Shown: positions 13,376-49,967 of the stretch, in pieces
Numbering within the stretch: the stretch's first letter is position 1
Layout: every line of letters begins with the position of its first letter
From: an uncultured Clostridium sp.
GTDB taxonomy: Bacteria > Bacillota_I > Bacilli_A > RF39 > UBA660
Assembly (NCBI GenBank): GCA_902493795.1
Contig: CABUQZ010000001.1
Span: forward strand, 38,697-102,696
Reading direction: 5' to 3'
Length of the DNA: 64,000 nucleotides
Made by a program: the position numbers and the translations under genes
Notes under the pieces: generated by a model
Databases searched by the model: none
The model's input: the letters and a program-made list of their open reading frames with translations, nothing else
Told to the model about the DNA's origin: nothing

Positions 13376-13400
13376 GTTAAAAAAAGAAGTAAAACTTCTT
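13376..13400 (-). terminator. Rho-independent terminator ending the NAD operon; overlaps the nrtR stop codon
   Basis: Hairpin aagaagt-aaa-acttctt followed by a T-run on the minus strand. Confidence 0.6.
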
Positions 13401-14223
13401 ATTTACCATTATATTTAAATAATCTACTAGGTCTATGTCCTTCACCTGTTTTATATTTATCTGTTGGAATTACTTTATTAGCAATTATTCTTCTAAAAGC
13501 AGGGTCTAATAATTTCTTTCTCAAAATAACTTCATATACTCTTTGTAACTCTCCTAAAGTGAAATATTCAGGCATCATATTAAATACAATATCAGTATAC
13601 TCAATTTTATTTTTTAATCTTTCTATTCCACTTAAAATAACTAAAGGATGATCAAATGCCATATATTTGTTTTCGTGAATTTTAAATGAATATCTATCAG
13701 TAGTTAACTCTTTTAAGTGTTTTTCTATAGAAAAATCAATTATTTCTTCATTGTTACTAAGTGTTATTTTAACAATATTTTCATCCTGAGAAATATCAAT
13801 TATATCAAACCATGACGAATTACTACTTAAGTTTTCTGTTACTTTATCTTTATCAATTAAAGCCATATAGCTAACAGAAATAACTCTCATACGAGGATCT
13901 CTATCTATTTCTCCAAAAGTATACAACTGTTCCAAATAAATATTAGATATTCCAGTTTCATTCTTCAATACCTTAATAGGTGCTTCATCAAGAGTATCAG
14001 AAGTTCCAACAAATCCACCAGGTAAACACCACTTGTCTTTAAATGGATAAGTATCTCTTTTAACAAGTAACACACTCATCTTTTTATCATCTAACTTTTT
14101 ATAATTAGAAGAATCTACACTAGATATTCCAAAAACCAAAACATCAGTTGTACATGCAATACTAGGATAGTCTTTAGGATTATAATCTTTTAAAAACTCC
14201 TCCTCATTTTCATATTCTTTCAT
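13399..14223 (-). CDS. nrtR: Nudix-related transcriptional regulator NrtR (degenerate Nudix domain plus C-terminal winged helix)
   Basis: The Nudix box is degenerate (GGFVGTSDTLDEAPIKVLKNETGI). C-terminal FTLGELQRVYEVILRKKLLDPAFRR resembles the NrtR DNA-binding domain. It is the last gene of an NAD salvage operon. Confidence 0.65.
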   Translation of the reverse strand: MKEYENEEEFLKDYNPKDYPSIACTTDVLVFGISSVDSSNYKKLDDKKMSVLLVKRDTYPFKDKWCLPGGFVGTSDTLDEAPIKVLKNETGISNIYLEQLYTFGEIDRDPRMRVISVSYMALIDKDKVTENLSSNSSWFDIIDISQDENIVKITLSNNEEIIDFSIEKHLKELTTDRYSFKIHENKYMAFDHPLVILSGIERLKNKIEYTDIVFNMMPEYFTLGELQRVYEVILRKKLLDPAFRRIIANKVIPTDKYKTGEGHRPSRLFKYNGK

Positions 14224-14227
14224 ATTA

Positions 14228-14701
14228 TTATTTTAAATTAAACTTTTCTTTTAAAAGTCTAATAACCTCCTGTAACACAAGATTTTTATTATCTTCTCTT
14301 TTATCATAAATTACTTTAATATGTGATTTTAAATAACTATTATTATCTCTATCATAAATTGATATAAACACTTCATCATCATTACCATAATCGTTATTTT
14401 GATCACTTCTTAAAAGTTTTCCTGTTATACCAATTCCATAATTTGAATCTGCAAACTTCGAAATATTAAAGCTCATTTCATCAGCTACTTCTTGTGAATA
14501 AACAGTGTACTTATCTATTACTTTTTCGTCTACTCCCATTTTTACTTTAAAATGATTTGCATAAGTAACACTAGAATACTCAAGAACATAAGATGCACCC
14601 GGAATATTTGTTATAGCGTTTACAATATACCCACCAGTACAAGATTCCATTGTAGCAATTTTCTTATTATTATTTTTTAAATATTCAACAATTTCTTTCA
14701 T
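14228..14701 (-). CDS. pncC: NMN amidohydrolase (CinA C-terminal domain, PncC)
   Basis: IATMESCTGG, a variant of the CinA/PncC IATAESCTGG motif. Confidence 0.75.
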   Translation of the reverse strand: MKEIVEYLKNNNKKIATMESCTGGYIVNAITNIPGASYVLEYSSVTYANHFKVKMGVDEKVIDKYTVYSQEVADEMSFNISKFADSNYGIGITGKLLRSDQNNDYGNDDEVFISIYDRDNNSYLKSHIKVIYDKREDNKNLVLQEVIRLLKEKFNLK

Positions 14702-14702
14702 A

Positions 14703-15773
14703 TTATTTTCTTCCTAACAACTCTAAAATTTTATCATTACTATGAACAATTTTTTTAAGTGATTTTCCTTCATGAATGTAATCTATTATTTCTGCTATTC
14801 TTCTTGAACAATTTACAACGTGTAACCATTTATATTTTTGATATTCTTTAGGAATATACGTTAAATTAGTTGTATAAAGTTTATCAAACACTTTATTCTT
14901 TTTAGCTTCTTTAAATATATCTATTCCACCAGTAAATAATGAAAATGTTGTAATAAAGAATATTTTCTTTGCTCCTTTTTCTCTTAACTTTTCTCCAACT
15001 TCAATAATAGAGGCACCACTTGCTATCATATCATCTACAACAATTACATTTTTATCTTTAACATCTGCTCCCATATAAGCATGTTCTACTATCGGATTTT
15101 TACCATTAACCACTTTCGTTAAATCACGTCTTTTATAAAACATGCCAACATCACTAAGAAGCATATCAGCATAATATCTTGCTCTTTCCATAGCACCCAT
15201 ATCAGGACTAATTACAAGTAAGTTATCTATTACTCCTTCTTCTTGAATTAACTCTTCAAGTATTATATTTGTTGGATAAAAATTTTCAAAAGGTAAATTT
15301 GGTACTGCATTAGCAACCTTTTTTTCATGACAATCAAAAGTTATAATATGATTAACATTAAGTCTTTTTAATTCTTGTAAGGCAAGCGCACAGTCAAGTG
15401 ACTCTTTTCCTTTTCTTCTATCTTGTCTTGATTGATATAAAAGTGGCATTATTACAGTGATTCTTCTAGCATATCCAGATAAAGCACTAATTGCTCTTTT
15501 TATATCTTGAAAGTGTTCATCAGGTCCCATAGGAACTTTCATATCATGCATTTCGTAAGTGACACCATAATTTCCAACATCACTTAATATAAATACATCT
15601 TTATCTCTAGTTGTCTCATTTATTATTACTTTTCCTTCACCATTATTGAATCTTACAGCATCTAAATCCATGATATGTGACTTATCACTTCTATTCATTT
15701 TCTTAAGGTATTCATCAACCTCTTGTCCTATTTCCTTAATATTATCCATAACTATAAGCTTTAGATCATCCAT
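14703..15773 (-). CDS. Ribose-phosphate pyrophosphokinase-family protein (Prs paralog with an insertion; 356 aa)
   Basis: RFNNGEGKVIINETTR, PLLYQSRQDRR and the PRPP-binding motif VVDDMIASGASI; an extra segment sits near residues 68-95. Confidence 0.6.
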   Translation of the reverse strand: MDDLKLIVMDNIKEIGQEVDEYLKKMNRSDKSHIMDLDAVRFNNGEGKVIINETTRDKDVFILSDVGNYGVTYEMHDMKVPMGPDEHFQDIKRAISALSGYARRITVIMPLLYQSRQDRRKGKESLDCALALQELKRLNVNHIITFDCHEKKVANAVPNLPFENFYPTNIILEELIQEEGVIDNLLVISPDMGAMERARYYADMLLSDVGMFYKRRDLTKVVNGKNPIVEHAYMGADVKDKNVIVVDDMIASGASIIEVGEKLREKGAKKIFFITTFSLFTGGIDIFKEAKKNKVFDKLYTTNLTYIPKEYQKYKWLHVVNCSRRIAEIIDYIHEGKSLKKIVHSNDKILELLGRK

Positions 15774-15791
15774 TTCATACCTCCATTATCT

Positions 15792-16346
15792 TTACTTACT
15801 TATTATTTCTTCAACAATTTTATTTAAAACTTGGTCTCTATCATAAGTTGTATCATAGTATTTAATTCCAAGTTTTTTACATTCTTTTTCTACTTGTCTA
15901 GAATAATCTATATCTAATTCAATTAGTCTCAATAACTCTTCGTCACTTTTTTTATTTGTCCAAAAGTTATTATCATCTTTTTCTCTAATTGTTTTCAAAA
16001 TTTCTGAAGGTAACGCTTTACTATATCCTAAAAAGATAACTTCTGTATCACTTGTATCAATCATACTAATATCTTTAGGAAATACAAATGGAGTATCAAA
16101 CAAATACTTTTCTTTTCCAAAATTTGTATCTGTCTTATTATCTAAAATAATACGATTAATTATTTTACATACTATAGGAGATACATCTTCCCATTTATCA
16201 TATTTAACTCCATACGCTTCGCATATTCCTCTTTTAACAGAGTCCATCTTATAATGAGTAAACCCATATTTATTTAACATCAATGATAAAGTTGTTTTAC
16301 CACTTCTTGCTGCACCAGCAATTATTATGTGCATAAATACCACCAA
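15792..16346 (-). CDS. P-loop kinase, candidate nicotinamide riboside/nucleoside kinase
   Basis: Walker A IIAGAARSGKTTLS; sits in the NAD operon between nadD and the prs-like gene. Confidence 0.35.
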   Translation of the reverse strand: MVVFMHIIIAGAARSGKTTLSLMLNKYGFTHYKMDSVKRGICEAYGVKYDKWEDVSPIVCKIINRIILDNKTDTNFGKEKYLFDTPFVFPKDISMIDTSDTEVIFLGYSKALPSEILKTIREKDDNNFWTNKKSDEELLRLIELDIDYSRQVEKECKKLGIKYYDTTYDRDQVLNKIVEEIISK

Positions 16347-16347
16347 C

Positions 16348-16911
16348 CTAATTATTATACAATTTATTTTCTATGATATAGTTGTAAACTTCTAAAGGTA
16401 TATAATTTATATCAAGCTTATTTCTTAATTCAGTTGAACTAATATCTACGAAAGGATAATCTTTAATAATTACAAAATTTTCTTTATTTTCAAATTTATC
16501 AACATATTTTTTTATATCCAAATTATCTCTATTAAAAACAATTACTTTATTATTAGAAACAATTTGATCTACTTTCATCCATTTATCAAAAGAGACAATG
16601 TTATCAGCACCAATCATTAAATATAAATCATCATTTGGATGTTCTTTTTTTATAGCTTCTAACACTTGATAAGTATAATCATATTTATTATTAACGTTAT
16701 CTACAGTTAGATAATCTCTTTTAATCAGTTTTAACATTTCTACTCTTTTATTTATATCTGTCAAAGATTTTTTATCCCAATAATTCTTAGTAGGCAAAAT
16801 AACTATCTTATCTAAATAATTATTATCTATTAAATAATCCATAACTTTTATATGTCCAGTATGTATTGGGTCAAAAGATCCTACATAAACACCAAGTCTC
16901 ATTTTAATCAC
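16348..16911 (-). CDS. nadD: Nicotinate-nucleotide adenylyltransferase
   Basis: LGVYVGSFDPIHTGHIKV (HxGH motif) and a C-terminal SSTELR motif. Confidence 0.85.
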   Translation of the reverse strand: MIKMRLGVYVGSFDPIHTGHIKVMDYLIDNNYLDKIVILPTKNYWDKKSLTDINKRVEMLKLIKRDYLTVDNVNNKYDYTYQVLEAIKKEHPNDDLYLMIGADNIVSFDKWMKVDQIVSNNKVIVFNRDNLDIKKYVDKFENKENFVIIKDYPFVDISSTELRNKLDINYIPLEVYNYIIENKLYNN

Positions 16912-16938
16912 CTACCAATAAATAATATTATAACAAAT

Positions 16939-17712
16939 TTATTTAGTTTGGCGATAGGTTGGAATAACAAATTTATGTTGATTGTTATTATGTAGTCTTT
17001 CTATCTTTTCTCTTACTTCAACAGGTAATTGTTCTTTATCTTCTAAATATGTTGCAATATCTTTATATTTTACTCCCAACTTATCTTCATCACTTAAGTT
17101 TGATAATCCATCACTTGGAGTTCTATAAAGCACTTCTTTAGGTACTTTTAAGTATTCTCCTACTGCAATTACTTCGTCAACTGTTAAATCTGCAAGGGCT
17201 GAAATATCATGAACTGAATCCCCACCTTTAGTGAAATAACCTACATAAAGTTCACTCTTATTACTTGTTCCACCAACTAAATAAGTTTTACCTTTTATAC
17301 TAGAATATAAAGCTGCTAAATAATATAATGTACTCATTCTTAATCTAGGTTTTAAATTAATATCACTATTTTTTAAGTTTTCTTCTGTAAACTCACCTAA
17401 TTTATCGATTTCTTTTTTAAATGTATTAAAAGTTGGTGTTAAATCTACATTAATTAATTCAAATCCATAGTAATCTGCTACTACTTTAGCAAGATCTTTA
17501 TCTTTAGGTTTTGACTCACAAGGCATTGTTACACCAAGAACATTTTCACTTCCAAGAGCTTTAGTAAATAAAGCAGCAACAACACCAGAGTCTTTTCCAC
17601 CACTTATTCCTAAGACAACTCCCCCTAAATTATTTTTTTTGTAATAGTCTCTAATAAACTCGATTATTTCATTTGTAACTTTTTTAGCATCAAACATATT
17701 ATTTACCTCCAT
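16939..17712 (-). CDS. nadE: NH3-dependent NAD+ synthetase
   Basis: PP-loop GISGGKDSGVVAAL; 257 aa with no glutaminase domain. Confidence 0.85.
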   Translation of the reverse strand: MEVNNMFDAKKVTNEIIEFIRDYYKKNNLGGVVLGISGGKDSGVVAALFTKALGSENVLGVTMPCESKPKDKDLAKVVADYYGFELINVDLTPTFNTFKKEIDKLGEFTEENLKNSDINLKPRLRMSTLYYLAALYSSIKGKTYLVGGTSNKSELYVGYFTKGGDSVHDISALADLTVDEVIAVGEYLKVPKEVLYRTPSDGLSNLSDEDKLGVKYKDIATYLEDKEQLPVEVREKIERLHNNNQHKFVIPTYRQTK

Positions 17713-19180
17713 AAATATGACGTTTTACATTATTAATAACTTCTTGTTTTGAATCAATATATTCTTTTGTACCACTAACTCTATATTCGTGTGGATTTAG
17801 CTCTCTTCTAACTTCTGGATATAACTTATTCATTTCTTGTTCGCAATAAGCTTTCTTTTCAAGTAATGTTGGCTCATCATAAACAAGCTCTCCATCTTTA
17901 AAGATATATTGTTGAAGTTCTTTTAATTTAAATCCATCGATAACACTGCTTTTTAACATATCTTGTGGACTAATAATTAATAAATTACTTGTATCGATAT
18001 GTTTTCCTTCTTCAGTCATAACATCTGCTAAAGCATAACCTGTTTTTTCATCAAATGCTCTATATAATCTTTTATAAAAAGGATTTATTGTTTTTATTGT
18101 ATCATTACTTAATTTAATTTTTGGAACCCATTTACCATTTTGTTTAATTGCTACTTCTTTGTAAACACATCCCATTCTTCCATTAGGTTTAGAAATATTA
18201 TCACCAACTCCTAAACTATCAAATTTTGCTCCTTGTCTAACAAGCGCTTCGATAACTTCTGCAGTAAGTCCATTACTTAAACAAATCTTTGCATTTGGGT
18301 ATCCTGCTTCATCTAACATTTTTCTTGCTTCACAAGATAAGTAAGCTAAGTCACCAGAATCTATTCTAATTCCAATATGATCAGTAGGAAGTCCAATTTC
18401 TTTCATATAGTCAAAAGTTTTAATTGCGTTTGGTACACCACTTCTTAAAGTATCATAAGTATCTACAAGCAAAGTTGCATTATTTGGAAACTTCTTAACA
18501 AACGCTTTAAATGAATCTAGCTCAGTATCAAAAGATTCTACAAAACTGTGAGCCATAGTTCCTAATGGTTTTAATCCTAAAGCTTTAGCAACAAGTGTAT
18601 TACTAGTACCAGCACAACCTGCCATTACTCCATATATTGAAGAATCAATTGCAGCTTCAGGTCCATCAGCACGTCTTGCTCCAAACTCCATAACAGGAAC
18701 ATTTTTAGGTACTGCTTCAATTATTCTTCTTGCTCCAGTCGCATGTTCCATAGAACCATTAACAAGTGTTAATAAAGCAGTTTCTATAACTTGAGCTTCT
18801 ACTAGTGGAGCTCTTACAGTAACAATAGGTTCATTAGGAAATACTGGTGTCCCATCTGGTACTGCTTTTAAGTCACCATGGAATTTGAAGTTTCTTAGTT
18901 TTTCAACAAACTCTTCTCCTAATCCTTGTTCTTTCAAAAATTCTAAATCTTCTTCTGAAAAATGTAGATTCTTAATGTATTCAATTATCTTATCAACTCC
19001 TGCCATAACAGCATATCCACCATCATTAGGAACTTTTCTAAAAAATACATCAAATACAACTTCTTCAGTATCTTTACTAGCAGAATTATATCCATCACTC
19101 ATTGTTAATTCATACCAGTCTGTTAGCATTGTATAATTTCTAGGTAATCTTTCAAATTTTTTCATTTTATCTTCCTCCAT
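17699..19180 (-). CDS. pncB: Nicotinate phosphoribosyltransferase
   Basis: N-terminal LTDWYELTM (PncB-type); 493 aa. Confidence 0.8.
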   Translation of the reverse strand: MEEDKMKKFERLPRNYTMLTDWYELTMSDGYNSASKDTEEVVFDVFFRKVPNDGGYAVMAGVDKIIEYIKNLHFSEEDLEFLKEQGLGEEFVEKLRNFKFHGDLKAVPDGTPVFPNEPIVTVRAPLVEAQVIETALLTLVNGSMEHATGARRIIEAVPKNVPVMEFGARRADGPEAAIDSSIYGVMAGCAGTSNTLVAKALGLKPLGTMAHSFVESFDTELDSFKAFVKKFPNNATLLVDTYDTLRSGVPNAIKTFDYMKEIGLPTDHIGIRIDSGDLAYLSCEARKMLDEAGYPNAKICLSNGLTAEVIEALVRQGAKFDSLGVGDNISKPNGRMGCVYKEVAIKQNGKWVPKIKLSNDTIKTINPFYKRLYRAFDEKTGYALADVMTEEGKHIDTSNLLIISPQDMLKSSVIDGFKLKELQQYIFKDGELVYDEPTLLEKKAYCEQEMNKLYPEVRRELNPHEYRVSGTKEYIDSKQEVINNVKRHIYGGK

Positions 19181-19772
19181 ATTTTTTTACTAATTTAATT
19201 CCACCTGCATTCATAAACTCAAATGCCATATTATTCCATTTATCTCTTGGGTGTGTTGGTGCATCAAAAGTTTCTACTGCGTTTTCTGGAACAACTATTT
19301 CTATATCCATATTATGTTCATCAAAATAATTTCTTAATGGTATTGCAAGATTAATAACACATATATCTGTACAACATCCAGTAATAACAATTCTCTTTAA
19401 GTTCTTCATTTTCTTAATGTTTTCTAAGAATCCTTTTGAAAACATTGCACTTGTTGAATTCTTCTCTTGAACTAAAGCCATATTTTCATATTTTTTTAAT
19501 TCTGAAACAACTTCTGATTCACTTGTATCTCTACGACTATGTATAGGATATCTTTTAAACTCAAGGCAACCCTCATTATGTACATCTTTAATAAACATTG
19601 TTCCTTTGTTTTCATCTTCACTAAATTCTTGAGCCAAAGATTGAATTTCTGGAACGATATGCATAATATATGGATCTGCCATTGCTCCTTCTTTAGTAAA
19701 ACCATTAATCATATCAACTACAATCAATAACTCTTTAATTTCTTCTAAATTTTTCTTATTCATAACACTCAT
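19167..19772 (-). CDS. pncA: Nicotinamidase / isochorismatase-family hydrolase
   Basis: VVDMINGF ... GCCTDICV; first gene of the operon, with RBS GGGAG. Confidence 0.7.
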   Translation of the reverse strand: MSVMNKKNLEEIKELLIVVDMINGFTKEGAMADPYIMHIVPEIQSLAQEFSEDENKGTMFIKDVHNEGCLEFKRYPIHSRRDTSESEVVSELKKYENMALVQEKNSTSAMFSKGFLENIKKMKNLKRIVITGCCTDICVINLAIPLRNYFDEHNMDIEIVVPENAVETFDAPTHPRDKWNNMAFEFMNAGGIKLVKKYGGR

Positions 19773-19790
19773 ACTCCCTTCTTTTTAACA

Positions 19791-19807
19791 AAGTGTTAAT
19801 AACACTT
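19791..19807. promoter_or_regulatory. 17-bp perfect palindrome AAGTGTTA-A-TAACACTT at about +1 of the pncA promoter; candidate NrtR operator
   Basis: The arms are exact reverse complements. The element lies immediately downstream of the predicted -10 and upstream of the pncA RBS. Confidence 0.5.
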
Positions 19808-19815
19808 ACGAGACC

Positions 19816-19844
19816 ATTCTATAACAATAAACATCATTTGTCAA
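19816..19844 (-). promoter_or_regulatory. Sigma-A-type promoter of the NAD operon (-35 TTGACA, 17-bp spacer, -10 TAGAAT)
   Basis: Minus-strand TTGACA at 19839-19844 and TAGAAT at 19816-19821. Confidence 0.55.
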
Positions 19845-19873
19845 TATCTTTTTAACAAAATATTAAAAAGAGC

Positions 19874-20560
19874 TTATTTTCGCACATTAATAAAGTGCAT
19901 GAATAAACTCTTTGACTCTTCATCTTCTAATGTTTCTGGATGCCACTGAACTCCAATTACAAACTTTTTATCTTTCATTTCAATTGCTTCAATGTAATTA
20001 TCATCGCTAAATGCCACCGAATCAAAATAAGGATTTGGCAAGGCATGATAGTTATGCCTACTATTAACCACTAATCTACTAGATTTAACTATCGAAAACA
20101 ATTTACTTTTTTCATCTATAGACACATAATGAGCATGTTTATCAGCTGTATTATGTATTATCGAACTAGTATTTTTTTCATTCCATACTTTTTCCTTCTT
20201 ATAGTTAGATAATACCTGCATACCTAAACAAATACCTAATGTTGGAATATCATTTTCTATTACGTACTCAGCAATAAATCTATCAAATTTATTAATTTTA
20301 TTACCACCCGGAAGAACTATTCCATCACACAAGTTAATTTGACTAATCAGCATTTCTTTTTCGTCTATTGAAAGTTCTTCTTGATCATTATACTTAACTT
20401 CCAAATAATTTATATTTTGAGGAGGCATTATCATTATTGGAATTCCACCACACTCTATTATTTTTTTTCTATACCCCTCATTCACACTTGTTCTAACAAC
20501 CCCATCTAATTCTATAACTCTTGCAACAACACCTATCATCGGTTTCATACTATCACCCAA
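19874..20560 (-). CDS. Class I glutamine amidotransferase-like hydrolase (peptidase C26 / gamma-glutamyl hydrolase family)
   Basis: GICLGMQ ... GVQWHPE. Confidence 0.75.
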   Translation of the reverse strand: MGDSMKPMIGVVARVIELDGVVRTSVNEGYRKKIIECGGIPIMIMPPQNINYLEVKYNDQEELSIDEKEMLISQINLCDGIVLPGGNKINKFDRFIAEYVIENDIPTLGICLGMQVLSNYKKEKVWNEKNTSSIIHNTADKHAHYVSIDEKSKLFSIVKSSRLVVNSRHNYHALPNPYFDSVAFSDDNYIEAIEMKDKKFVIGVQWHPETLEDEESKSLFMHFINVRK

Positions 20561-20596
20561 ATTTATTATAAAATAAAAGAGGTTAAAAATAAACCT

Positions 20597-21694
20597 CTAA
20601 ACATTAAATCTAAAATAACAAATATCTCCATCTTGCATTAAATAATCTTTTCCTTCAAGACGAGTTTTACCAGCTTCCTTTACCTTTAATTCACTACCAT
20701 ATTGATCTAAATCTTCATAAGACATTATTTCAGCTTTGATAAATCCTTTTTCAAAATCAGTATGTATTATTCCAGCACACTCTTTAGCATTCATTCCTTT
20801 TTTGAATGTCCAAGCCCTTACTTCATCAGGTCCACCTGTGAAATATGTTGCAAGTCCTAACAAATCATATGTAGCTTTTACTAATTGATCAAGACCACTT
20901 TCTTTTATCCCTACAGAAAGAAGCATCTCTTTTTTATCTTCATCAGATAAATCACTTAAATCAGCTTCCATCTTAGCGCATGCTTTAACAACTTTTGAAT
21001 TTTCTTTTTCAGCATATTCTTTTACGCTTTTAACATATTGGTTATCTTCAGTTAATTCACTTTCTTTAACATTTGCTAAATAAATAATTGGTTTCATTGT
21101 AAGTAAATTAAATGATTTTAAAAATGGTAATTCATCTTTAGTAAACTCTACTCTTCTAAGTGCTACACCTTTTTCAAGATTTTCTTTAACTTTCTTTAAT
21201 ACATTTAATTCTTCTAAAGCTTCTTTATCTCTATTTGTTTCAGCTTTCTTTTTTATTTTATCTATTCTTGAATTAATTATTTCTAAGTCAGATAAAGATA
21301 ACTCAAGGTTAATAACTTCTATATCGCTTACTGGATCTATTTTACTTTCAACATGGATTATATTGTTATCATCAAAGCATCTAACTACTTCAACTATTGC
21401 ATCAACTTCTCTTATATGTGATAAGAATTTATTTCCTAATCCTTCACCCTCTGATGCTCCTTTTACAAGTCCTGCAATATCAGTAAACTCATAAGCTGTT
21501 GGTATTGTCCTAGCCGGATTATAAATTTCTGTTAATCTATCTAGCCTATCATCTTTTACTACAACAACTCCAACATTAGGTTCTATTGTAGCAAAAGGAT
21601 AATTTGCTGCTAAAATATTTTGTTTTGTAATTGCATTAAATAGTGTTGACTTTCCAACATTAGGAAGTCCAACAATTCCTGCTTTTAATCCCAT
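20597..21694 (-). CDS. ychF: Ribosome-binding ATPase YchF
   Basis: MGLKAGIVGLPNVGKSTLFNAIT; C-terminal TGS domain. Confidence 0.95.
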   Translation of the reverse strand: MGLKAGIVGLPNVGKSTLFNAITKQNILAANYPFATIEPNVGVVVVKDDRLDRLTEIYNPARTIPTAYEFTDIAGLVKGASEGEGLGNKFLSHIREVDAIVEVVRCFDDNNIIHVESKIDPVSDIEVINLELSLSDLEIINSRIDKIKKKAETNRDKEALEELNVLKKVKENLEKGVALRRVEFTKDELPFLKSFNLLTMKPIIYLANVKESELTEDNQYVKSVKEYAEKENSKVVKACAKMEADLSDLSDEDKKEMLLSVGIKESGLDQLVKATYDLLGLATYFTGGPDEVRAWTFKKGMNAKECAGIIHTDFEKGFIKAEIMSYEDLDQYGSELKVKEAGKTRLEGKDYLMQDGDICYFRFNV

Positions 21695-21706
21695 TTAAAC
21701 CACTCC

Positions 21707-23302
21707 TTATAACATTGGTGAAACATCTGGACCAATAGGTATTCCAATAACATAAGTTAAAATTACTATTAATAACCAAGCAATACTTATTATAAAACAA
21801 TAAGGTGATATATAAGATAATGCTTTCTTTATTGATATTGGTTCTTTCTCAGTATTATACACATTAAGATATCCTAAGTAAATAACAAAATAAGCCAAAA
21901 GTGGAGTAATACCCTTAGTCATTGAATCTCCAACTCTAAATAAGAATTGAGCAAACTGAGGAGAAACATTATTTTGCATTAAAAGTGGAACAGCTACTGG
22001 AGACAACAATGTCCATTTTGCTGTTGGTGTAGTAATAAATAGACTTGATAATGCAATTAGTAAAACAACAGCTATTATTAAAGGAAGTCCACTAAATGGA
22101 ATATCTTTAATAATATTTGATATAATTGCAACAATAAGTGTTCCAATATTTGTTTTTTTGAAGATAGCAATAAACTGAGCTGCAAAGAAAATCATTACTA
22201 CAAGATACCCAACATCTTTTAAGTAAAGTGATGATTTCTCAACTATTTCTTTATCACTTTTAATTGTTTTAGCACCTATTCCATATGCTATTCCTATAAC
22301 TAAAAATAACATTGAAATTAAATATGTAAATCCATCCTGGAAATAAGCATTTTCACCAAATAATTGATAAATATATGCTTCTTCATTCATATCAAGAAGA
22401 AGACCACTACCAGGAAGACCAGGTATCAACATATATACAAAGGCAAGAATAAATACTATAAGTGCAATTAATGCATATCTTAATCCTCTTTTTTCTCTTA
22501 TTTCTTGCTCTAATTTCTTTTGTTGTTCTTCTTCAACATCTTCTATTAAAATCTCTTTTGTCTCGTCACTTGCCTCAGCAACAGATAAACGATATCTTCC
22601 AATTCTTTTTGCAACAATTGATTCTATTATATAGGTTCCAACAATAGATAATACAACTGATGAAATAATAATTATAAATAAATTACTTAGTAAACTTACA
22701 TGAAAAGTTGGATCAACTATACGAGCAGCCTTTTCAGTGTAATTAACCAAATTCATTTCCATACTTCCTGCAAATATAGTAGCTCCATATCCAAAGGCAA
22801 CACCACAAAAGCTTGCTGTTATTCCTAATAATGGATTTCTTCTATTTGCAAGAAATATCAAAGCAGAAAGTGGTATTAAAATAACATAACCAACTTCATT
22901 TATTATACTAGAGATAGTTGCTATAAATATAATGAAAAATGTTAATGTTTTATTATTAATTTTTAAAGTTACTCTTTTTATAAAAGTATCAATAAGTCCA
23001 CTAGCATGTGCAACAGATAAGCCAATTAGACCTATCAGTAAAGTACTAAGTGGAGCAAAAGATATAAAATTCTTTGCAGCATTACTTATTAAAAACTTAA
23101 AGCCTTCAAAATTAAACAGTCCATCAACGGATACAACCACATTTTCTAGTGTACCAGACGAACTTATTCTTGAATATGTACTTTGAACGTCAAAGAAAGA
23201 TAATATTGAGCTAACTAGCATAACTAAAAAAGTTAGTACTATAAACGTGGTAATTGGATGCAATGTGATCTTTTTTAAACGAAACTTTTTCTTACTTTTC
23301 AT
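21707..23302 (-). CDS. AbgT-family-like (IT superfamily) membrane transporter
   Basis: 531 aa polytopic protein whose N-terminus resembles AbgT (..ITLHPITTFIVLTFLVMLVSSIL..). Confidence 0.4.
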   Translation of the reverse strand: MKSKKKFRLKKITLHPITTFIVLTFLVMLVSSILSFFDVQSTYSRISSSGTLENVVVSVDGLFNFEGFKFLISNAAKNFISFAPLSTLLIGLIGLSVAHASGLIDTFIKRVTLKINNKTLTFFIIFIATISSIINEVGYVILIPLSALIFLANRRNPLLGITASFCGVAFGYGATIFAGSMEMNLVNYTEKAARIVDPTFHVSLLSNLFIIIISSVVLSIVGTYIIESIVAKRIGRYRLSVAEASDETKEILIEDVEEEQQKKLEQEIREKRGLRYALIALIVFILAFVYMLIPGLPGSGLLLDMNEEAYIYQLFGENAYFQDGFTYLISMLFLVIGIAYGIGAKTIKSDKEIVEKSSLYLKDVGYLVVMIFFAAQFIAIFKKTNIGTLIVAIISNIIKDIPFSGLPLIIAVVLLIALSSLFITTPTAKWTLLSPVAVPLLMQNNVSPQFAQFLFRVGDSMTKGITPLLAYFVIYLGYLNVYNTEKEPISIKKALSYISPYCFIISIAWLLIVILTYVIGIPIGPDVSPML

Positions 23303-37028: not shown

Positions 37029-37952
37029 TTATACCTTCTCTTTCTTCATCTTAACTATCATATTTTGAACAACTGTAAATAAGTTTGTTGTAATCCAATA
37101 TATATTTAAAGCTGACGTCATGAAAATTGAAGTAAACAATATTAAGAAAAACATAAATCTAGACATCATCTTCATACTTTGATCACTAGGATTAGATGAA
37201 GAATTCATCTTTAATGAGAAATATGTAGTAGCACCAACTACTATAATAAGAACTAAATATAATAAGTTACCACCTTTTATTCCAGTAAATGGTGTTGTTC
37301 CAAGTTGTAGACCTAATAAATGTTCCTCAAATATAGCAGGTACCCTATTTATTGCTTCTAAAAATCCTATAAATAAAGGTATTTGTATGAAAGCGAACAA
37401 GCAACCAGAAATAGGATTAATATTATACTTTTTATAAATCATTGCCATTTCATTTGATTTTTTCATCATTGAAGCTTGATCTGTTTTTCCTTGATACTTC
37501 TTCTCTAGCCTATCTAACTCTGGCTTAGCATCTTTCATCAATTCAGATTGCATTGCTGTTTTTCTAGTTAATGGATATGCTATTAATCTAATTATCAAAC
37601 TAGTAATTATTAAACCAATTCCATAATCTTTAAAGATATTACCTAATTGAATAATAACCCATGCAAGTGGCTTAACTATTCCACTAGACCATAATCCATC
37701 ATATCCTCCACTACCTATTGAAAAATTCTTACATACAGGTAGTTCATCAATATTCTTATTATTATCTATATAAAGTTTTCTTACTTCTTCATCCTCTGGC
37801 TGACACAAAATATTTTCTGTTAAACTTTGACCTGTTGTAGGATTAGTAACAACCTTACTGTTTTTATCCTCTAATTGTTTTGTACAACCAGTTAGTAAAA
37901 ATACTCCTATTAAAATAACAAATATTTTAGCTATGTTTTTTCTATCTTTCAT
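37029..37952 (-). CDS. yidC: Membrane protein insertase YidC (lipoprotein type)
   Basis: Lipobox LLTGC and YidC/Oxa1 core TM helices. Confidence 0.85.
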   Translation of the reverse strand: MKDRKNIAKIFVILIGVFLLTGCTKQLEDKNSKVVTNPTTGQSLTENILCQPEDEEVRKLYIDNNKNIDELPVCKNFSIGSGGYDGLWSSGIVKPLAWVIIQLGNIFKDYGIGLIITSLIIRLIAYPLTRKTAMQSELMKDAKPELDRLEKKYQGKTDQASMMKKSNEMAMIYKKYNINPISGCLFAFIQIPLFIGFLEAINRVPAIFEEHLLGLQLGTTPFTGIKGGNLLYLVLIIVVGATTYFSLKMNSSSNPSDQSMKMMSRFMFFLILFTSIFMTSALNIYWITTNLFTVVQNMIVKMKKEKV

Positions 37953-38317
37953 TTTTTCTCCTTAAATTTTTGAATTCTTTCCAATAAAGACAAAAAATCT
38001 TTATCTTTAGTAGAAAAATCTACACTTCCATTCCTAATTATTATAATATAATCATAGCCTTTTTGGTAGTATTTTTTATATTTATCAATTATAAAGCGTA
38101 ATTGCCTTTTATATTTATTTCTATTAACTGCGTTACCAAGTTTTTTACTAACAGATATTCCAAACCTGTAATAATCACGTTTATTATCCTTATAATATAT
38201 AACATAACTATTATTTTTAAAAAAATGACCATTATGAATAACATCAGAAAATTCAAAATTTTTCTTAACTGTATGATATCTATCCATAATGATCACCTCT
38301 TTTAACAAAAAAGCCAC
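37949..38317 (-). CDS. rnpA: Ribonuclease P protein component
   Basis: Basic protein with a ...KKLGNAVNRNKYKRQLR.. motif, downstream of rpmH. Confidence 0.85.
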   Translation of the reverse strand: MAFLLKEVIIMDRYHTVKKNFEFSDVIHNGHFFKNNSYVIYYKDNKRDYYRFGISVSKKLGNAVNRNKYKRQLRFIIDKYKKYYQKGYDYIIIIRNGSVDFSTKDKDFLSLLERIQKFKEKK

Positions 38318-38333
38318 TGATTACAGTGGAATT

Positions 38334-38453
38334 TTAAACTAATTTTTTGCGTCCTTTACTTCTTCTATTATTTAAAACTTTTGTCTTTTTACGAGCAAAG
38401 AATCCGTGTTTTTTAGCTTTTTTTCTATTATTTGGTTGATAAGTTCTTTTCAC
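38334..38453 (-). CDS. rpmH: 50S ribosomal protein L34 (short, 39 aa, GTG start)
   Basis: Translation [50 protein letters not shown] upstream. Not in the ORF track because it is under 60 aa. Confidence 0.8.
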
Positions 38454-38580
38454 AATTCCACCTCCAAACTAAAATCGACATTATTATAATAAGGAAATAA
38501 CAAAATGTCAATTAAAATAATATCATTAAAATAATTATGATGCAACAAAAAAATACAAATTTCCACATTATTCACAACCC

Positions 38581-38743
38581 TGTGTATAAATATACGTAAA
38601 GTTATTCACATAATTAACAAACATGTTGAAAACTTAATAACATCCTGTGATTTAAAATTTGTGGAAAAAGTGGAAAACTCATATTTTACATATAAATAAA
38701 AGGTTTTACCTATGGATAACTTAGTGTATAACTTATGGATAAC
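38581..38743. promoter_or_regulatory. oriC upstream part (incA/B-like): cluster of degenerate DnaA boxes upstream of dnaA
   Basis: TGTGTATAA (38581), TTATTCACA (38602), TGTGGAAAA (38660), TATGGATAA x2 (38711, 38734). Each is one mismatch from TTATCCACA. Confidence 0.6.
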
Positions 38744-38825
38744 TATTTTTTGATTTTTTCTCTTTCTTTTTTTGCACAATTGGTCTACAATATTTGTTGT
38801 ATTTTGACAGGGGGCTTGATAAAGA

Positions 38826-40208
38826 ATGAACAACAATTCTATACTTTGGACAAAGATTCTTGAAAAGATCAAAAGTGAAATCAATTCTTTATCTTTTCAA
38901 ACATGGTTTGAAGAAACCACTTTGTACGATTTTAGTAACGGAGTAGCGAAGATAATTGTTCCTTATGCATTACACAAGGACCACTTAGCAAATAACTACA
39001 AAAAGCTTATAACTTCATGTTTTATTGAAGAAATAGGGGAACCAGTTGAACTTGAATTCCTAATCCAAGAGGAAATAGAAGAGCAAGATGAACTCCTAAA
39101 TGAACCAGAAATAAAGTTAGATTTTAATGACAATATATATAAGGATGTCAAAGATACTAATTTTGAATCACATTTGGATAAAAAATACACATTCGAAAAC
39201 TTTGTAGTAGGAAATACTAACAAATTTGCCCATGCAGCAGCACTTGCAGTAGCAGAAAAACCTGGAACTATGTATAATCCTCTGTTTATATATGGAAATA
39301 GTGGGTTAGGGAAGACCCATTTGATGCATGCAATAGGAAATTACATAGAAAAGAACTCAAATAAAAAAGTTTTATATATAACAAGTGAGACTTTTGTAAA
39401 TGATTTCATTGAAATTACAAGGAAAAAAGAAGAAAAAAGTAATTTTGAAAACATTGATTTCTTTAAGAAAAAATATAGAGATATAGATGTTCTAATTGTT
39501 GATGATATTCAGTTTTTAGCTAAAAAGAATGAATCTCAAAAAGAATTTTTCCATACATTTAACAACTTATATGGTGATGATAAACAAATAATCATATCTT
39601 CAGATAGATCGCCAAATGACTTGAAAATATTTGAGGATAGGTTAAGAACAAGATTCAATTGGGGATTACCAGTTAATATTTATCCACCAGATTTTGACTT
39701 AAAAGTTGCTATATTAAAGAAAAGAATAGCAGCAGAAGCCATGAATACTGATATACCTGATAATGTTATAGAATATATGGCATCAAATATAGGAACAGAC
39801 ATAAGAAGTTTGGAAGCTAGTCTGAATAGATTGTTTGCATATTCAACAATGATGGGAGCAGATATAACACTAGATTTAGCAATAGAAGCCCTAAAAGACT
39901 ATATAAATGCTGGATTTAGTGAAAAAAATGACGTAGGAAAAATCCAAAAATTAGTAGCAGATTACTTTAAAGTATCAATTGATGACCTAAAATCTAAGAA
40001 AAGAAACGCTGATTTAGCATTTCCAAGACAAATTGCTATGTATCTCTGTAGAAAACATACTGATGAATCTTTTCCTAAGATAGGGCTAGAGTTTGGTGGA
40101 AAAGACCATACAACTGTTATGCACTCTTGTTACAAGATAGAAAAAGAGATAAAAAATAACAAAAATTTAGCTGAAGAAATTGATAAACTTGAAAAAGAAT
40201 TACATTAA
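38826..40208 (+). CDS. dnaA: Chromosomal replication initiator DnaA
   Basis: GNSGLGKTHLMHAIGN ... C-terminal DNA-binding domain. Confidence 0.97.
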   Translation: MNNNSILWTKILEKIKSEINSLSFQTWFEETTLYDFSNGVAKIIVPYALHKDHLANNYKKLITSCFIEEIGEPVELEFLIQEEIEEQDELLNEPEIKLDFNDNIYKDVKDTNFESHLDKKYTFENFVVGNTNKFAHAAALAVAEKPGTMYNPLFIYGNSGLGKTHLMHAIGNYIEKNSNKKVLYITSETFVNDFIEITRKKEEKSNFENIDFFKKKYRDIDVLIVDDIQFLAKKNESQKEFFHTFNNLYGDDKQIIISSDRSPNDLKIFEDRLRTRFNWGLPVNIYPPDFDLKVAILKKRIAAEAMNTDIPDNVIEYMASNIGTDIRSLEASLNRLFAYSTMMGADITLDLAIEALKDYINAGFSEKNDVGKIQKLVADYFKVSIDDLKSKKRNADLAFPRQIAMYLCRKHTDESFPKIGLEFGGKDHTTVMHSCYKIEKEIKNNKNLAEEIDKLEKELH

Positions 40209-47763: not shown

Positions 47764-47804
47764 TAATTTAGTTGTAATTTATTAATTAATATAGTAAAAT
47801 TTAA

Positions 47805-47892
47805 TTGATGCAATAAGTACGGCAGAACTAGGTCAGGACAGGAATGTAGCAGCCTTAATGCTTATAAAAATTTGTACTTATGTGCATCATTT
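47805..47892 (+). ncRNA. ffs: Signal recognition particle RNA (small 4.5S-type)
   Basis: Domain IV motif AGGUCAGG-ACA-GGAA-UGU-AGCAGCC closes a GGAA tetraloop. The 5' segment GATGCAATAAGTAC pairs with the 3' segment GTACTTATGTGCATC. A tadA-scr-dnaX neighbourhood is known from Bacillus. Confidence 0.7.
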
Positions 47893-47913
47893 TTTTTGGA
47901 GTTGTGGAAGTAT

Positions 47914-48336
47914 ATGATCAAAGATGATTTATATTATATGAATCAAGCCTATAATGAAGCATTAAAGGCCTATGATAAAAATGAAATTCCAGTAGGAGCT
48001 GTAATTGTATGTAATGGAAAAATTATAGCAAGAGGACATAATTTAAGAGATTCGAGCAATATTGTGACAAAACATGCAGAAATCATAGCAATAGAAAAAG
48101 CAAATAAAAAGAAAAAAAACTGGAGATTAATAGATTGCATTCTATATACTACATTAGAGCCATGTAATATGTGCAAAGAGGTAATAAAAGAAACAAAAAT
48201 AAACAAAGTTATCTACGGAGCAAGTGGTAAAAATCCAAGTAAAGAGGAAAAAATAATTCAAATTAAAGATCAAAATATAATAGCACAGTGTGAGAATATT
48301 ATTTGTAAAATGTTCAAAAATATAAGAGAAAAGTAA
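47914..48336 (+). CDS. tadA: tRNA-specific adenosine deaminase TadA
   Basis: HAEIIAIEKA ... TLEPCNMCKEVI zinc-binding motifs. Start placed at MIKDD to avoid overlapping ffs (the tracked ORF starts at 47872). Confidence 0.85.
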   Translation: MIKDDLYYMNQAYNEALKAYDKNEIPVGAVIVCNGKIIARGHNLRDSSNIVTKHAEIIAIEKANKKKKNWRLIDCILYTTLEPCNMCKEVIKETKINKVIYGASGKNPSKEEKIIQIKDQNIIAQCENIICKMFKNIREK

Positions 48337-48346
48337 TATAAAAAAT

Positions 48347-48372
48347 TGTGGATAAAAGTTTCACGTGAAACG
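48347..48372 (+). promoter_or_regulatory. Composite element 1: DnaA box TGTGGATAA (48347-48355) abutting parS-like AGTTTCACGTGAAACG (14/16)
   Basis: Direct sequence match; 1-nt gap. Confidence 0.7.
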
Positions 48373-48465
48373 AAGTAAAAAAAATCTACGTAATAATTCC
48401 AATAATAGATTATTTATTGGAATTTTTTTTTGAAAATATTTCCTTATTACATTTTTTATTTAAAT

Positions 48466-48850
48466 ATATTATTTCTTGGGAAATATTCTATAAATTATTT
48501 CCCAAAGACCATAGATAGTAAAAATATATTTCCCGAGAAATATTTATATATAATTATTATCTTAATATATTAGTTGTTAAAAAAAATATTTCCTGGGAAA
48601 TATTCGATAAATTATTTCCCAAAAACTATAAATAGTAAAAAATATATTTCCCGGGAAATAATTATATGTAATTATTATCCAATATAATAGTTGTTGAAAA
48701 AAAATTTTTCCCAGGAAATATTCTATAAATTATTTCCCAAAAACTATAAATAGTAAAAAATATATTTCCCGGGAAATAATTATATGTAATTATTATCCAA
48801 TACAATAGTTGTTGAAAAAAAATATTTCCTAGGAATTATATAAATATTTT
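48466..48850. repeat. About 3.2 tandem copies of a 119-bp repeat, each carrying two Noc-binding-site-like palindromes
   Basis: Unit starts at about 48466, 48586, 48704 and 48823. Perfect ATTTCCCGGGAAAT at 48646-48659 and 48764-48777. Variants with 1-3 mismatches: ATTTCTTGGGAAAT (48471), ATTTCCCGAGAAAT (48528), ATTTCCTGGGAAAT (48588), TTTTCCCAGGAAAT (48706), ATTTCCTAGGAATT (48825). Confidence 0.85.
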
Positions 48851-49135
48851 ATATAAAGTATTAATTAAAGAATAGTGATTGCAATTTTATTTTAAGAATA
48901 ATCTTTTTATATTATATAAGATTATTTTTATTTGTGGAAAAAGAAATATATAGTTTTAATAATAAAGAAAATAAACGAAGAAAAAATATTTAATAATAAA
49001 CATATTTTATAAAAAATAAATTTTGTATATGCATCTTGTTGATAAAAGTTATAAGTGGCAAAAGAGAAGAAAATATAAATGAAAAAATGGTAAAACGAAG
49101 AAAAAAAGATTAATTTATTAAATACAAACAGTTTA

Positions 49136-49161
49136 TGTGGATAAATGTTTCACGTGAAACA
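49136..49161 (+). promoter_or_regulatory. Composite element 2: perfect DnaA box TGTGGATAA plus perfect parS TGTTTCACGTGAAACA (49146-49161)
   Basis: 16/16 match to the Bacillus-type parS consensus TGTTNCACGTGAAACA. Confidence 0.85.
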
Positions 49162-49250
49162 TAATAATAATCTGGAAAAAGGAAGTAATAAACAAAATAG
49201 GTGAAAAACAGAACGGAGAATAAGATATTGATGAATAAATTAAGAAATCA

Positions 49251-49275
49251 AAAGGATAAAGTTTCATGTGAAACT
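49251..49275 (+). promoter_or_regulatory. Composite element 3 (degenerate): AAAGGATAA plus AGTTTCATGTGAAACT (13/16)
   Basis: Same architecture as the other units, with mismatches. Confidence 0.45.
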
Positions 49276-49375
49276 ATTGATAGTGGAAAAAGATATTATA
49301 TAGAATAAAAAAGAAAGTAAAACGGAGAAAAAAAGTTTTATATATAACATTTAAGAAAAATAATATGAACATTTT

Positions 49376-49400
49376 TGTGAATAATGTTTCACGTGAAACA
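49376..49400 (+). promoter_or_regulatory. Composite element 4: DnaA box TGTGAATAA plus perfect parS TGTTTCACGTGAAACA (49385-49400)
   Basis: 16/16 parS; the box has one mismatch. Confidence 0.85.
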
Positions 49401-49488
49401 TAAAACTTAGTGGAAAATATAAAAAATATTAATAATTTGATATGATTATAATTGTGACTAAATGCTTTATGTATCAAAATTTCTAGAT

Positions 49489-49513
49489 TGTGGAAAAAGT
49501 TTCACGTGAAACA
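49489..49513 (+). promoter_or_regulatory. Composite element 5: DnaA box TGTGGAAAA plus parS AGTTTCACGTGAAACA (15/16)
   Basis: Direct sequence match. Confidence 0.75.
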
Positions 49514-49585
49514 TTATAAATAAAATGTAGAATATAACTTATAAATAATATTTTAAATAATAATGTAATAAAAACGGTTGTGCTT

Positions 49586-49686
49586 TGTGGATAAAAATTG
49601 TTGATTAAAAAAATAGAAATATATGTAAAGTAAAATAAAAATAGAATATTAAAAAATAATTTTTATATATTTTTTATTGTGGATAA
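49586..49686 (+). promoter_or_regulatory. Two further perfect DnaA boxes (TGTGGATAA at 49586-49594 and 49678-49686) inside an almost pure A/T tract (49600-49900)
   Basis: 9/9 consensus boxes in the same orientation as the composite units; the flanking DNA is over 90% AT. Confidence 0.7.
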
Positions 49687-49930
49687 AATTTAAAAAAACA
49701 AAAAAATATGTGTTTTAACACTTTTTATATCAAGAAAATAACAAAAATGTAATAATAATATTTATATGTATGATTTTGCTTATAAAATATTTTTATAGAT
49801 AAAAAATAATGTTTTTATATAATGTCAATATGTATGCTTAAAAATAAATGTAAAGTATGTAAATATACGTAAAAATAATGATAACTTGTTGATAAAAAAT
49901 ATATTCAAAATGTCTGTAAAATAAAATATT

Positions 49931-49945
49931 TATGGTATAATATAT
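49931..49945 (+). promoter_or_regulatory. Extended -10 promoter element (TGgTATAAT) for dnaX
   Basis: tatggtataat lies 25 nt upstream of the dnaX start. Confidence 0.45.
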
Positions 49946-49967
49946 CTTGAGATTTATAGGGGGACTT

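Follow-up and report, generated by a model that had tools for sequence, protein, structure and literature searches.

A predicted NrtR-controlled NAD salvage operon with a Prs paralogue and an unannotated P-loop kinase-like protein in an uncultured lineage of low-GC Bacilli

The NrtR family provides the closest described precedents for regulated salvage of nicotinamide adenine dinucleotide (NAD): NrtR controls a pncA-pncB-nadD-nadE set of genes in Clostridium acetobutylicum and a prs gene in Shewanella (PMC2330246). ADP-ribose releases the characterised NrtR proteins from DNA, and their published operators are palindromes of about 21 bp that overlap the promoter or lie between the promoter and the start codon. 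A GT-N7-AC operator core was reported for most NrtR groups, with some Firmicute and gamma-proteobacterial groups diverging from it (PMC2330246). Here we describe a related locus in a 64-kb stretch of low-GC DNA (about 27% GC) from contig CABUQZ010000001.1, referred to as the window, in which eight genes follow one another on the minus strand in the order pncA-like, pncB, nadE, nadD, a gene for a P-loop protein, a prs paralogue (prs2), pncC and nrtR. We consider it highly probable that these genes form a real, tightly packed NAD salvage operon under the control of its own NrtR, acting through two operators that flank the promoter. An NAD salvage and recycling operon ending in, and governed by, its own NrtR is what the original prediction had proposed for this DNA, and both the family assignments and a conserved operator motif support it.

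The eight co-oriented open reading frames (ORFs) extend over positions 13399-19772, and all of them were recovered at the predicted positions from a list of ORFs with translations (Table 1). When the longest ORFs are considered, the successive junctions measure -14, -14, +27, +1, +18, +1 and +4 nt. Gene callers place the starts slightly later, as seen in 23 public metagenome contigs on which this operon recurs and its P-loop protein is identical, and these starts give junctions of 1, 1, 36, 13, 18, 1 and 4 nt. With either set of starts the genes overlap or abut, as had been predicted, and they would make up one transcription unit.

Domain searches against Pfam and NCBIfam confirmed the identities proposed for these genes, with the P-loop protein as the member lacking a family match. 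Scores above curated cut-offs for PncB, NadE, NadD, the Prs paralogue and PncC, together with the combination of a Nudix domain and an NrtR_WHD domain in the regulator, support the salvage-operon reading. PncB was closest to the structure of the Enterococcus faecalis nicotinate phosphoribosyltransferase (NaPRTase) 2f7f, with 284 bits. No glutaminase domain was found in NadE by the domain searches, NadD carries the motifs GSFDPIHTGH and ISSTELR, and PncC carries ESCTGG. The PncA-like product (198 aa according to gene callers) did not come near the cut-off of any NCBIfam equivalog model. Its catalytic Asp, Lys and Cys residues and its metal-site D-x-H...H motif can be aligned with those of a solved isochorismatase-family chain, 5zn8 (deposited as 'Isochorismatase'), and the pyrazinamidase/nicotinamidases 1ilw and 3s2s are among the clearer, more distant matches. 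It is on these active-site residues and on the gene context that we base its assignment as a putative nicotinamidase.

The last gene encodes a protein with an N-terminal Nudix-like domain (PF00293, 40 bits, cut-off 21) fused to a C-terminal winged helix (PF21906 NrtR_WHD, 57 bits, cut-off 27), and it matches the solved NrtR-family structures 5bs6, 3gz5 and 2fml. Its Nudix box, read from the translation as G-x5-D-x7-K-V-L-x-N-E-x-G-I, is degenerate, as in non-catalytic NrtR proteins, and therefore the protein is probably a sensor rather than a hydrolase. By analogy with the rest of the family (PMC2330246), it would be expected to respond to ADP-ribose.

The putative targets of this regulator were defined in a set of 31 related loci from a genome collection, identified here by L-numbers, which belong almost entirely to uncultured Bacilli/Erysipelotrichaceae-type metagenome-assembled genomes, many of them from gut or rumen according to the record titles. 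A TTAA-N5-TG-TTAA core inside a 21-bp palindrome was recognised in the regions upstream of the NAD clusters of these loci. The exact sequence TTAA-N5-TGTTAA occurs 21 times in them, 16 times in intergenic DNA that precedes genes of an NAD cluster. From the related-locus sites only, with the window excluded, a position weight matrix (PWM) was derived. Within the 64 kb of the window just two positions reached 12 bits or more, both at the operon promoter (27.6 and 24.3 bits), whereas 30 Markov shuffles of the window gave a maximum of 21.1 bits. As a motif learned from related loci alone matches the window only at the operon promoter, and does so twice, control of the operon by NrtR is the reading that we favour. 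In the related loci the PWM gave 36 matches of 17 bits or more, and every one of them is situated ahead of pncA, prs2, nadD, the P-loop gene, radical S-adenosylmethionine (radical-SAM) genes or pncC; in several of these loci a TATAAT -10 box sits in the central spacer of the operator.

The two candidate operators of the window have the geometry published for NrtR sites. The distal one begins 2 nt past the stop codon of the upstream gene, which encodes a peptidase C26/class-I glutamine amidotransferase (C26/GATase), and stops 2 nt short of the -35 hexamer; L003, L004, L012, L017 and L023 have the same sequence at the corresponding place ahead of their -35. The proximal one overlaps a perfect 17-bp palindrome, AAGTGTTATTAACACTT (19807-19791), for which the window holds no other match at up to 2 mismatches and one chance-level match with 3 mismatches (14357-14373). 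This palindrome was considered as an operator and rejected, because it is not conserved in the related loci whereas the overlapping 21-bp motif is. A defined operator motif for this NrtR group allows its regulon to be mapped in related metagenome-assembled genomes.

Table 1. Features of the NAD gene cluster (positions refer to the window)
Feature	Position	Strand	Basis
pncA-like, putative nicotinamidase of isochorismatase fold; probable start ATG 19763	19167..19772	-	PF00857 77 bits
pncB, nicotinate phosphoribosyltransferase; probable start 19165	17699..19180	-	NF006695 532 bits (cut-off 469)
nadE, single-domain ammonia-type NAD synthetase; probable start 17697	16939..17712	-	PF02540 180 bits; TIGR00552 186 bits
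nadD, nicotinate-mononucleotide adenylyltransferase	16348..16911	-	TIGR00482 134 bits (cut-off 112)
P-loop kinase-like protein, 180 aa, unannotated family	15792..16334	-	Walker A; predicted fold; context
Prs paralogue (prs2), ribose-phosphate diphosphokinase-like, NF005299 subfamily (formerly PRK06827)	14703..15773	-	NF005299 435 bits (cut-off 327)
pncC, stand-alone CinA C-terminal domain, putative nicotinamide mononucleotide amidohydrolase	14228..14701	-	PF02464 93 bits; TIGR00199 72.4 bits (cut-off 68.9)
nrtR, Nudix-like effector domain and winged-helix DNA-binding domain; last gene	13399..14223	-	Domain searches, structure matches
Distal candidate NrtR operator CTCTTTTTAATATTTTGTTAAAAAGAT	19846..19872	-	PWM 27.6 bits
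Sigma-70-type promoter TTGACA-17 nt-TAGAAT	19816..19844	-	11/12 consensus matches; sequence also read directly
Proximal candidate NrtR operator GTGTTATTAACACTTTGTTAAAAAGAA, between -10 and ribosome-binding site	19779..19805	-	PWM 24.3 bits
Promoter-like TTGAAA-16-TATAAT inside the prs2 coding region	15262..15289	-	11/12 matches; about 560 nt upstream of pncC
Weak terminator-like hairpin AGAAGU-UUU-ACUUCU (6 bp, A/U-rich) followed by U7, directly after the nrtR stop	13379..13399	-	Sequence reading

Synteny is complete in L003 and L004, which keep the order ychF-C26-pncA-pncB-nadE-nadD-Ploop-prs-pncC-nrtR-rpsF with 62-93% protein identity. No other protein of the operon is as well conserved as the Prs paralogue, which shows 80-86% identity where NrtR shows 71-75% and the P-loop protein 60-69%.

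Taken as a pathway, the operon would work as follows. PncA would convert nicotinamide into nicotinate, which PncB would couple to phosphoribosyl pyrophosphate (PRPP) to give nicotinate mononucleotide (NaMN); NadD would then produce nicotinate adenine dinucleotide (NaAD), to be converted into NAD by the ammonia-type NadE. Nicotinamide mononucleotide (NMN) released by DNA ligase or arising from riboside salvage would be deamidated by PncC to NaMN, thus usable by NadD, and the Prs paralogue would supply the PRPP that PncB consumes. The P-loop protein might phosphorylate nicotinamide or nicotinate riboside, feeding PncC and NadD. NrtR would repress its own operon through the two 21-bp palindromes, the distal one next to the -35 and the proximal one in the stretch that separates the -10 from the ribosome-binding site, until ADP-ribose, a by-product of NAD cleavage, releases it from DNA and induces the operon, as in the characterised NrtR systems. 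The host lineage, uncultured low-GC gut Bacilli, presumably depends on vitamin B3 salvage. Such a compact, self-regulating NAD recycling unit is largely expected biology; the part worth experimental follow-up is the P-loop kinase, whose unannotated family is assigned to the NAD regulon by NrtR operators.

Several observations weigh against the reading of the locus as one NrtR-controlled salvage unit. The regulator scores 152 bits on the NCBIfam equivalog NF050029, whose cut-off is 400, and on its architecture it is best described as a member of the family rather than an equivalog of that curated set. The operator core is TTAA-N7-TTAA and not GT-N7-AC (PMC2330246). A promoter scan of the operon region gave two 11/12 consensus matches, the second of them inside prs2, and promoter-like hexamer pairs occur at chance frequency (50 found, 52.7 expected in shuffled DNA). 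The TTGACA-17-TAGAAT promoter predicted originally is present, and in view of these matches the claim that it is the only sigma-A promoter is not established. The site inside prs2 could drive basal expression of pncC-nrtR. Between prs and pncC, which are 1 nt apart in the window, the close relatives L002 (2093-2599) and L004 (9637-9703) have an intergenic gap with an operator-like site in it (21.4 and 18.0 bits, respectively), and pncC-nrtR may form a separately regulated sub-operon there; these sites and the promoter-like site in prs2 together suggest that pncC-nrtR may also be expressed separately. Likewise, the single terminator of the original prediction exists as a hairpin with U7 after nrtR, and it is weak: the fold reaches -5.1 kcal/mol (z = -1.4), no better than 20 of 200 shuffles, and a terminator scan with its own criteria did not report it. 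No PnuC transporter was found by BLAST to the window proteins and Pfam searches of selected neighbouring ORFs, many of the neighbouring ORFs being unannotated. Finally, the P-loop kinase has no detectable relationship to the riboside kinase domain of NadR, and L001, L006, L008 and L009 keep the kinase beside prs in a locus from which pncA, pncB, nadE, nadD and nrtR are absent. The two last points concern the substrate of the kinase and are considered below.

The Prs paralogue raised the possibility of a different chemistry. Phage genes formerly annotated as prs proved to encode ADP-ribose pyrophosphokinases (Adps) of the NARP1 pathway, which is also present outside prophages in some bacteria (bioRxiv 10.1101/2024.02.11.579819; PMC12774641). 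By analogy, the Prs-like enzyme of the operon would make ADP-ribose pyrophosphate (ADPR-PP) from ADP-ribose, and the phosphoribosyltransferase would couple ADPR-PP to nicotinate or nicotinamide to give NaAD or NAD directly, an idea to which the sensing of ADP-ribose by the NrtR family (PMC2330246) lends some appeal. The window protein is full length, with 96 bits to Escherichia coli Prs in phmmer, and matches TIGR01251 (184 bits, cut-off 113), PF13793, PF00156 and PF14572. The insertion that had been noted in it was confirmed, and in comparison with E. coli Prs there are two: one in the N-terminal domain, 14 residues long (12 if counted in the pairwise phmmer alignment), and one of 6 residues in the catalytic flexible loop, in addition to a C-terminal extension. 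The K-R-R loop, the His of D-x-H, R-Q-D-R, S-P-D, D-D and the 5-phosphate loop are all kept. The last of these reads ASGAS, a departure from the DTGGT of canonical Prs that would favour the ADP-ribose alternative.

The three families compare as follows at these motifs. The flexible loop is K-R-R both in canonical Prs and in the window family, and K-x-R in Adps; the D-x-H motif is D-L-H-A in canonical Prs, D-C-H-E or D-A-H-D in the window family and D-P-H-S in Adps; and the 5-phosphate loop is DTxGT, ASGxS, and CDGGxT or SFGGT, respectively. A neighbour-joining tree of 18 sequences (200 bootstraps, midpoint rooting), which is a modest test, was built with the experimentally characterised Adps of SPbetaL1, seven further phage Prs-like genes, four canonical Prs proteins and two further NF005299-type sequences. 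Seven of the eight phage genes adjoin a Nampt/Namat-like gene, the neighbour in ICP1 being annotated only as hypothetical. Adps, the window family and canonical Prs formed three clades, each with 200/200 bootstraps; the window paralogue fell outside the phage-type Adps clade, and under midpoint rooting its family joined canonical Prs. In tblastn searches of the window, canonical Prs queries gave 88-118 bits and Adps queries 41-79 bits, and no second, canonical prs was found in the 64 kb.

The genetic context of prs2 argues in the same direction. No Namat-like gene was found in the operon, whose sole phosphoribosyltransferase is a standard NaPRTase, above the NF006695 cut-off and with 21 bits to the Namat of SPbetaL1 against 284 bits to 2f7f. 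The operon also keeps NadD and NadE, which would be superfluous on a direct route to NAD. Moreover, the members of the NF005299-type family number at least 7,993, and some are encoded at a distance from NAD genes. The suggestion in the original prediction that the Prs-like protein could be an ADP-ribose pyrophosphokinase was thus not upheld, given its position outside the phage clade, its K-R-R loop and its partner, and we regard NARP1-like chemistry in this operon as very unlikely. Most likely, as judged from its sequence, the paralogue is a genuine PRPP synthase, and analogy with the phage NARP1 is by itself no reason to rename NF005299-type Prs paralogues of NrtR regulons as ADP-ribose pyrophosphokinases. 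Records named 'Bacteriophage sp.' match the paralogue at 40-44% identity. Those from human faecal samples (L045 and L046; GenBank MT836735.1 and MT836918.1) carry an NF005299-type prs, 41-44% identical to that of the window, with no NAD genes nearby. Such records were considered and rejected as evidence for a phage origin of the gene, because they are unverified, unannotated faecal contigs that may be bacterial.

The P-loop gene is the least expected member of the operon. Its longest ORF starts at TTG 16346, and the true product is probably 180 aa long. The protein shows a Walker A motif, GAARSGKTT, and an invariant H-Y-K-x-D-x3-R motif after strand 2, and its invariant basic residues include H27, K29, K34, R35, R10 and R117. 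No match to it was found in Pfam, NCBIfam, PADLOC or PDB sequences. An AlphaFold2 model (mean predicted local distance difference test, pLDDT, 92.6) was compared by Foldseek, revealing a fold like that of nucleoside monophosphate (NMP) kinases, with uridine/cytidine monophosphate (UMP/CMP), adenylate, shikimate and gluconate kinases as best matches (template modelling (TM) score 0.5-0.63). A PDB profile search with the kinase family returned matches at the level of the P-loop only. The family itself is small and comprises 173 close homologues, all unnamed or hypothetical, and 1,175 cluster representatives at E < 0.001, and no phage homologues were found. One close orthologue from the representative search, P0241 (369 aa), continues at its C-terminus into an HD domain of the CCA-adding-enzyme type (a phosphohydrolase); this single instance may be a real fusion or an artefact of gene calling. 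Domain fusions in distant homologues (HD, methyltransferase, GT2, DUF4298) were also considered as a clue to function and gave no coherent hint.

Genomic context links this gene to NAD metabolism. It adjoins or sits near nadD and/or pncC in 12 of the 31 loci, and where it is otherwise isolated, in L022, L024 and L026, an NrtR-type operator lies directly upstream. Because it is linked to NAD genes and preceded by NrtR operators in related loci, even when alone, we take it to be a genuine member of the predicted NrtR regulon. Its product is read as a small-molecule kinase. Phosphorylation of nicotinamide or nicotinate riboside to feed PncC and NadD is our leading guess, held tentatively. In this regard, no NCBIfam or Pfam match to a riboside kinase (NadR RNK, Nrk) was obtained, and hhalign against E. 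coli NadR gave a probability of 22%, confined to the P-loop region.

The loci that keep the kinase beside prs without the pyridine genes point instead to ribose-phosphate or adenylate chemistry, away from riboside salvage. The kinase could act on this side of the cycle as, for example, an AMP-recycling kinase (AMP being produced by Prs and NadE), an analogue of ribose-1,5-bisphosphate kinase that feeds PRPP, or a kinase of ADP-ribose or a derivative. E. coli PhnN is a P-loop ribose-1,5-bisphosphate kinase of about 185 aa that can supply PRPP for NAD synthesis. UMP/CMP and adenylate kinases are the top structural matches of the window protein, its several invariant basic residues suggest an anionic substrate, and its motif resembles the YxLDGDNIRxGL segment of adenosine 5'-phosphosulphate (APS) kinase. 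However, it matched no adenylate, guanylate or PhnN-type kinase model, one of the searches being run at a maximum E-value of 1, its arginines are fewer than those of true NMP kinases, and in more distant loci its gene adjoins pncC or nadD and not prs. Taken jointly, these ribose-phosphate and adenylate roles appear rather unlikely, yet they compete seriously with the riboside guess.

Additional genes are associated with the kinase in sister lineages. Radical-SAM genes lie immediately upstream of the P-loop gene in nine loci: L011 (5331-7998), L012, L014, L015, L016, L017, L019, L023 and L027. Seven of them have three such genes, which encode a protein of about 221 aa and two paralogues of about 320-345 aa; L016 and L019 each have one truncated or interrupted copy. 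In two other cases (L020, 5920-7174; L024, 8536-9801) a fusion of HEAT repeats to a radical-SAM domain is encoded downstream of the P-loop gene. The proteins weakly resemble MoaA and the prokaryotic viperins, far below curated cut-offs. Such an arrangement could mean that the P-loop gene belongs primarily to a nucleotide-modifying radical-SAM pathway and is a leftover in the NAD operon of the window, as nucleoside triphosphates are the substrates of MoaA and viperins, which frequently occur together with kinases. That origin seems improbable to us, since the radical-SAM modules are themselves located inside NAD clusters with NrtR operators, the P-loop gene is intact at 60-69% identity across nine loci lacking radical-SAM genes (L001-L009), and its product is identical on all 23 contigs.

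Genes for a distinct Nudix hydrolase, an ADP-ribosylglycohydrolase, DUF5662 and NadK may likewise be present in the clusters with radical-SAM genes. In L011 (1364-12041) the order is pncA-pncB-Nudix hydrolase-nadE-nadD-three radical-SAM genes-P-loop-ADP-ribosylglycohydrolase-pncC-DUF5662-nadK-nrtR, an arrangement that suggests a more complete regulon for ADP-ribose recycling in sister lineages. The module formed by radical-SAM enzymes and the kinase, absent from the window, is potentially a novel pathway. It is possible, if doubtful, that the P-loop protein founds an undescribed kinase family for a so far unassigned step of NAD/ADP-ribose recycling and that, in sister lineages, it takes part with the radical-SAM enzymes, ADP-ribosylglycohydrolase and NadK in an NrtR-controlled pathway for the synthesis or repair of an NAD-related nucleotide. 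Knowledge of its substrate could close a gap in bacterial NAD or ADP-ribose recycling and explain the recurrent pairing with radical-SAM enzymes.

Upstream of the operon, a conserved syntenic block on the minus strand (19874-23302) encodes an AbgT-family transporter (531 aa), YchF and the C26/GATase. This last gene was considered as a ninth member that would provide ammonia for NadE and was rejected, as the distal operator and the promoter separate it from pncA and it is syntenic with AbgT. Its synteny with the transporter suggests p-aminobenzoyl-glutamate or folate-type chemistry, and it is probably unrelated to NAD. Further away, the GC skew changes sign at about 38 kb (37952-38826), and a dnaA-sized ORF (38826-40208) followed by dnaN-, gyrB- and gyrA-sized ORFs lies beyond it on the plus strand. 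This is likely the replication origin, which would place the NAD operon region about 20 kb from it; the operon is co-oriented with replication. Just past the signal recognition particle (SRP) RNA (47804-47894), some 1.6 kb at 19% GC (48336-49947) contain no ORF longer than 67 aa and gave no Rfam match.

Compared with the NrtR salvage systems described (PMC2330246), the locus shares the regulator with Nudix-like and winged-helix domains, the pncA/pncB/nadD/nadE core, autoregulation, and 21-bp palindromic operators that overlap the promoter or lie just downstream of it. It differs in having nrtR as the last gene instead of the first, in three added genes (P-loop kinase, Prs paralogue and pncC), in an operator core of TTAA-N7-TTAA where GT-N7-AC is found in most of the described groups, and in two operators that bracket the core promoter. 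With the NrtR-controlled prs-nadV operons of the gamma-proteobacteria Shewanella and Acinetobacter (PMC2330246) it has in common a dedicated Prs paralogue next to a pyridine phosphoribosyltransferase, although the partner here is the NaPRTase PncB rather than NadV/Nampt and the Prs belongs to the NF005299 subfamily.

The phage NARP1 system (Adps plus Namat; bioRxiv 10.1101/2024.02.11.579819, PMC12774641) likewise combines a gene of Prs fold with a neighbouring gene of pyridine phosphoribosyltransferase fold in a context related to ADP-ribose. In contrast, the window Prs lies outside the Adps clade and is devoid of Adps signatures, its transferase is not Namat-like, and NadD and NadE are present; judged by these sequence features, the operon is not a NARP1-type system. 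As for the NMP-kinase-fold kinases (adenylate, UMP/CMP, shikimate, gluconate and APS kinases, NadR and Nrk), the P-loop protein shares with them the Walker A motif, the predicted fold and an Asp/Arg motif right after strand 2, and it is set apart from them by the lack of a profile or sequence match and by its distinctive H-Y-K-M-D-S-I-K-R-G motif.

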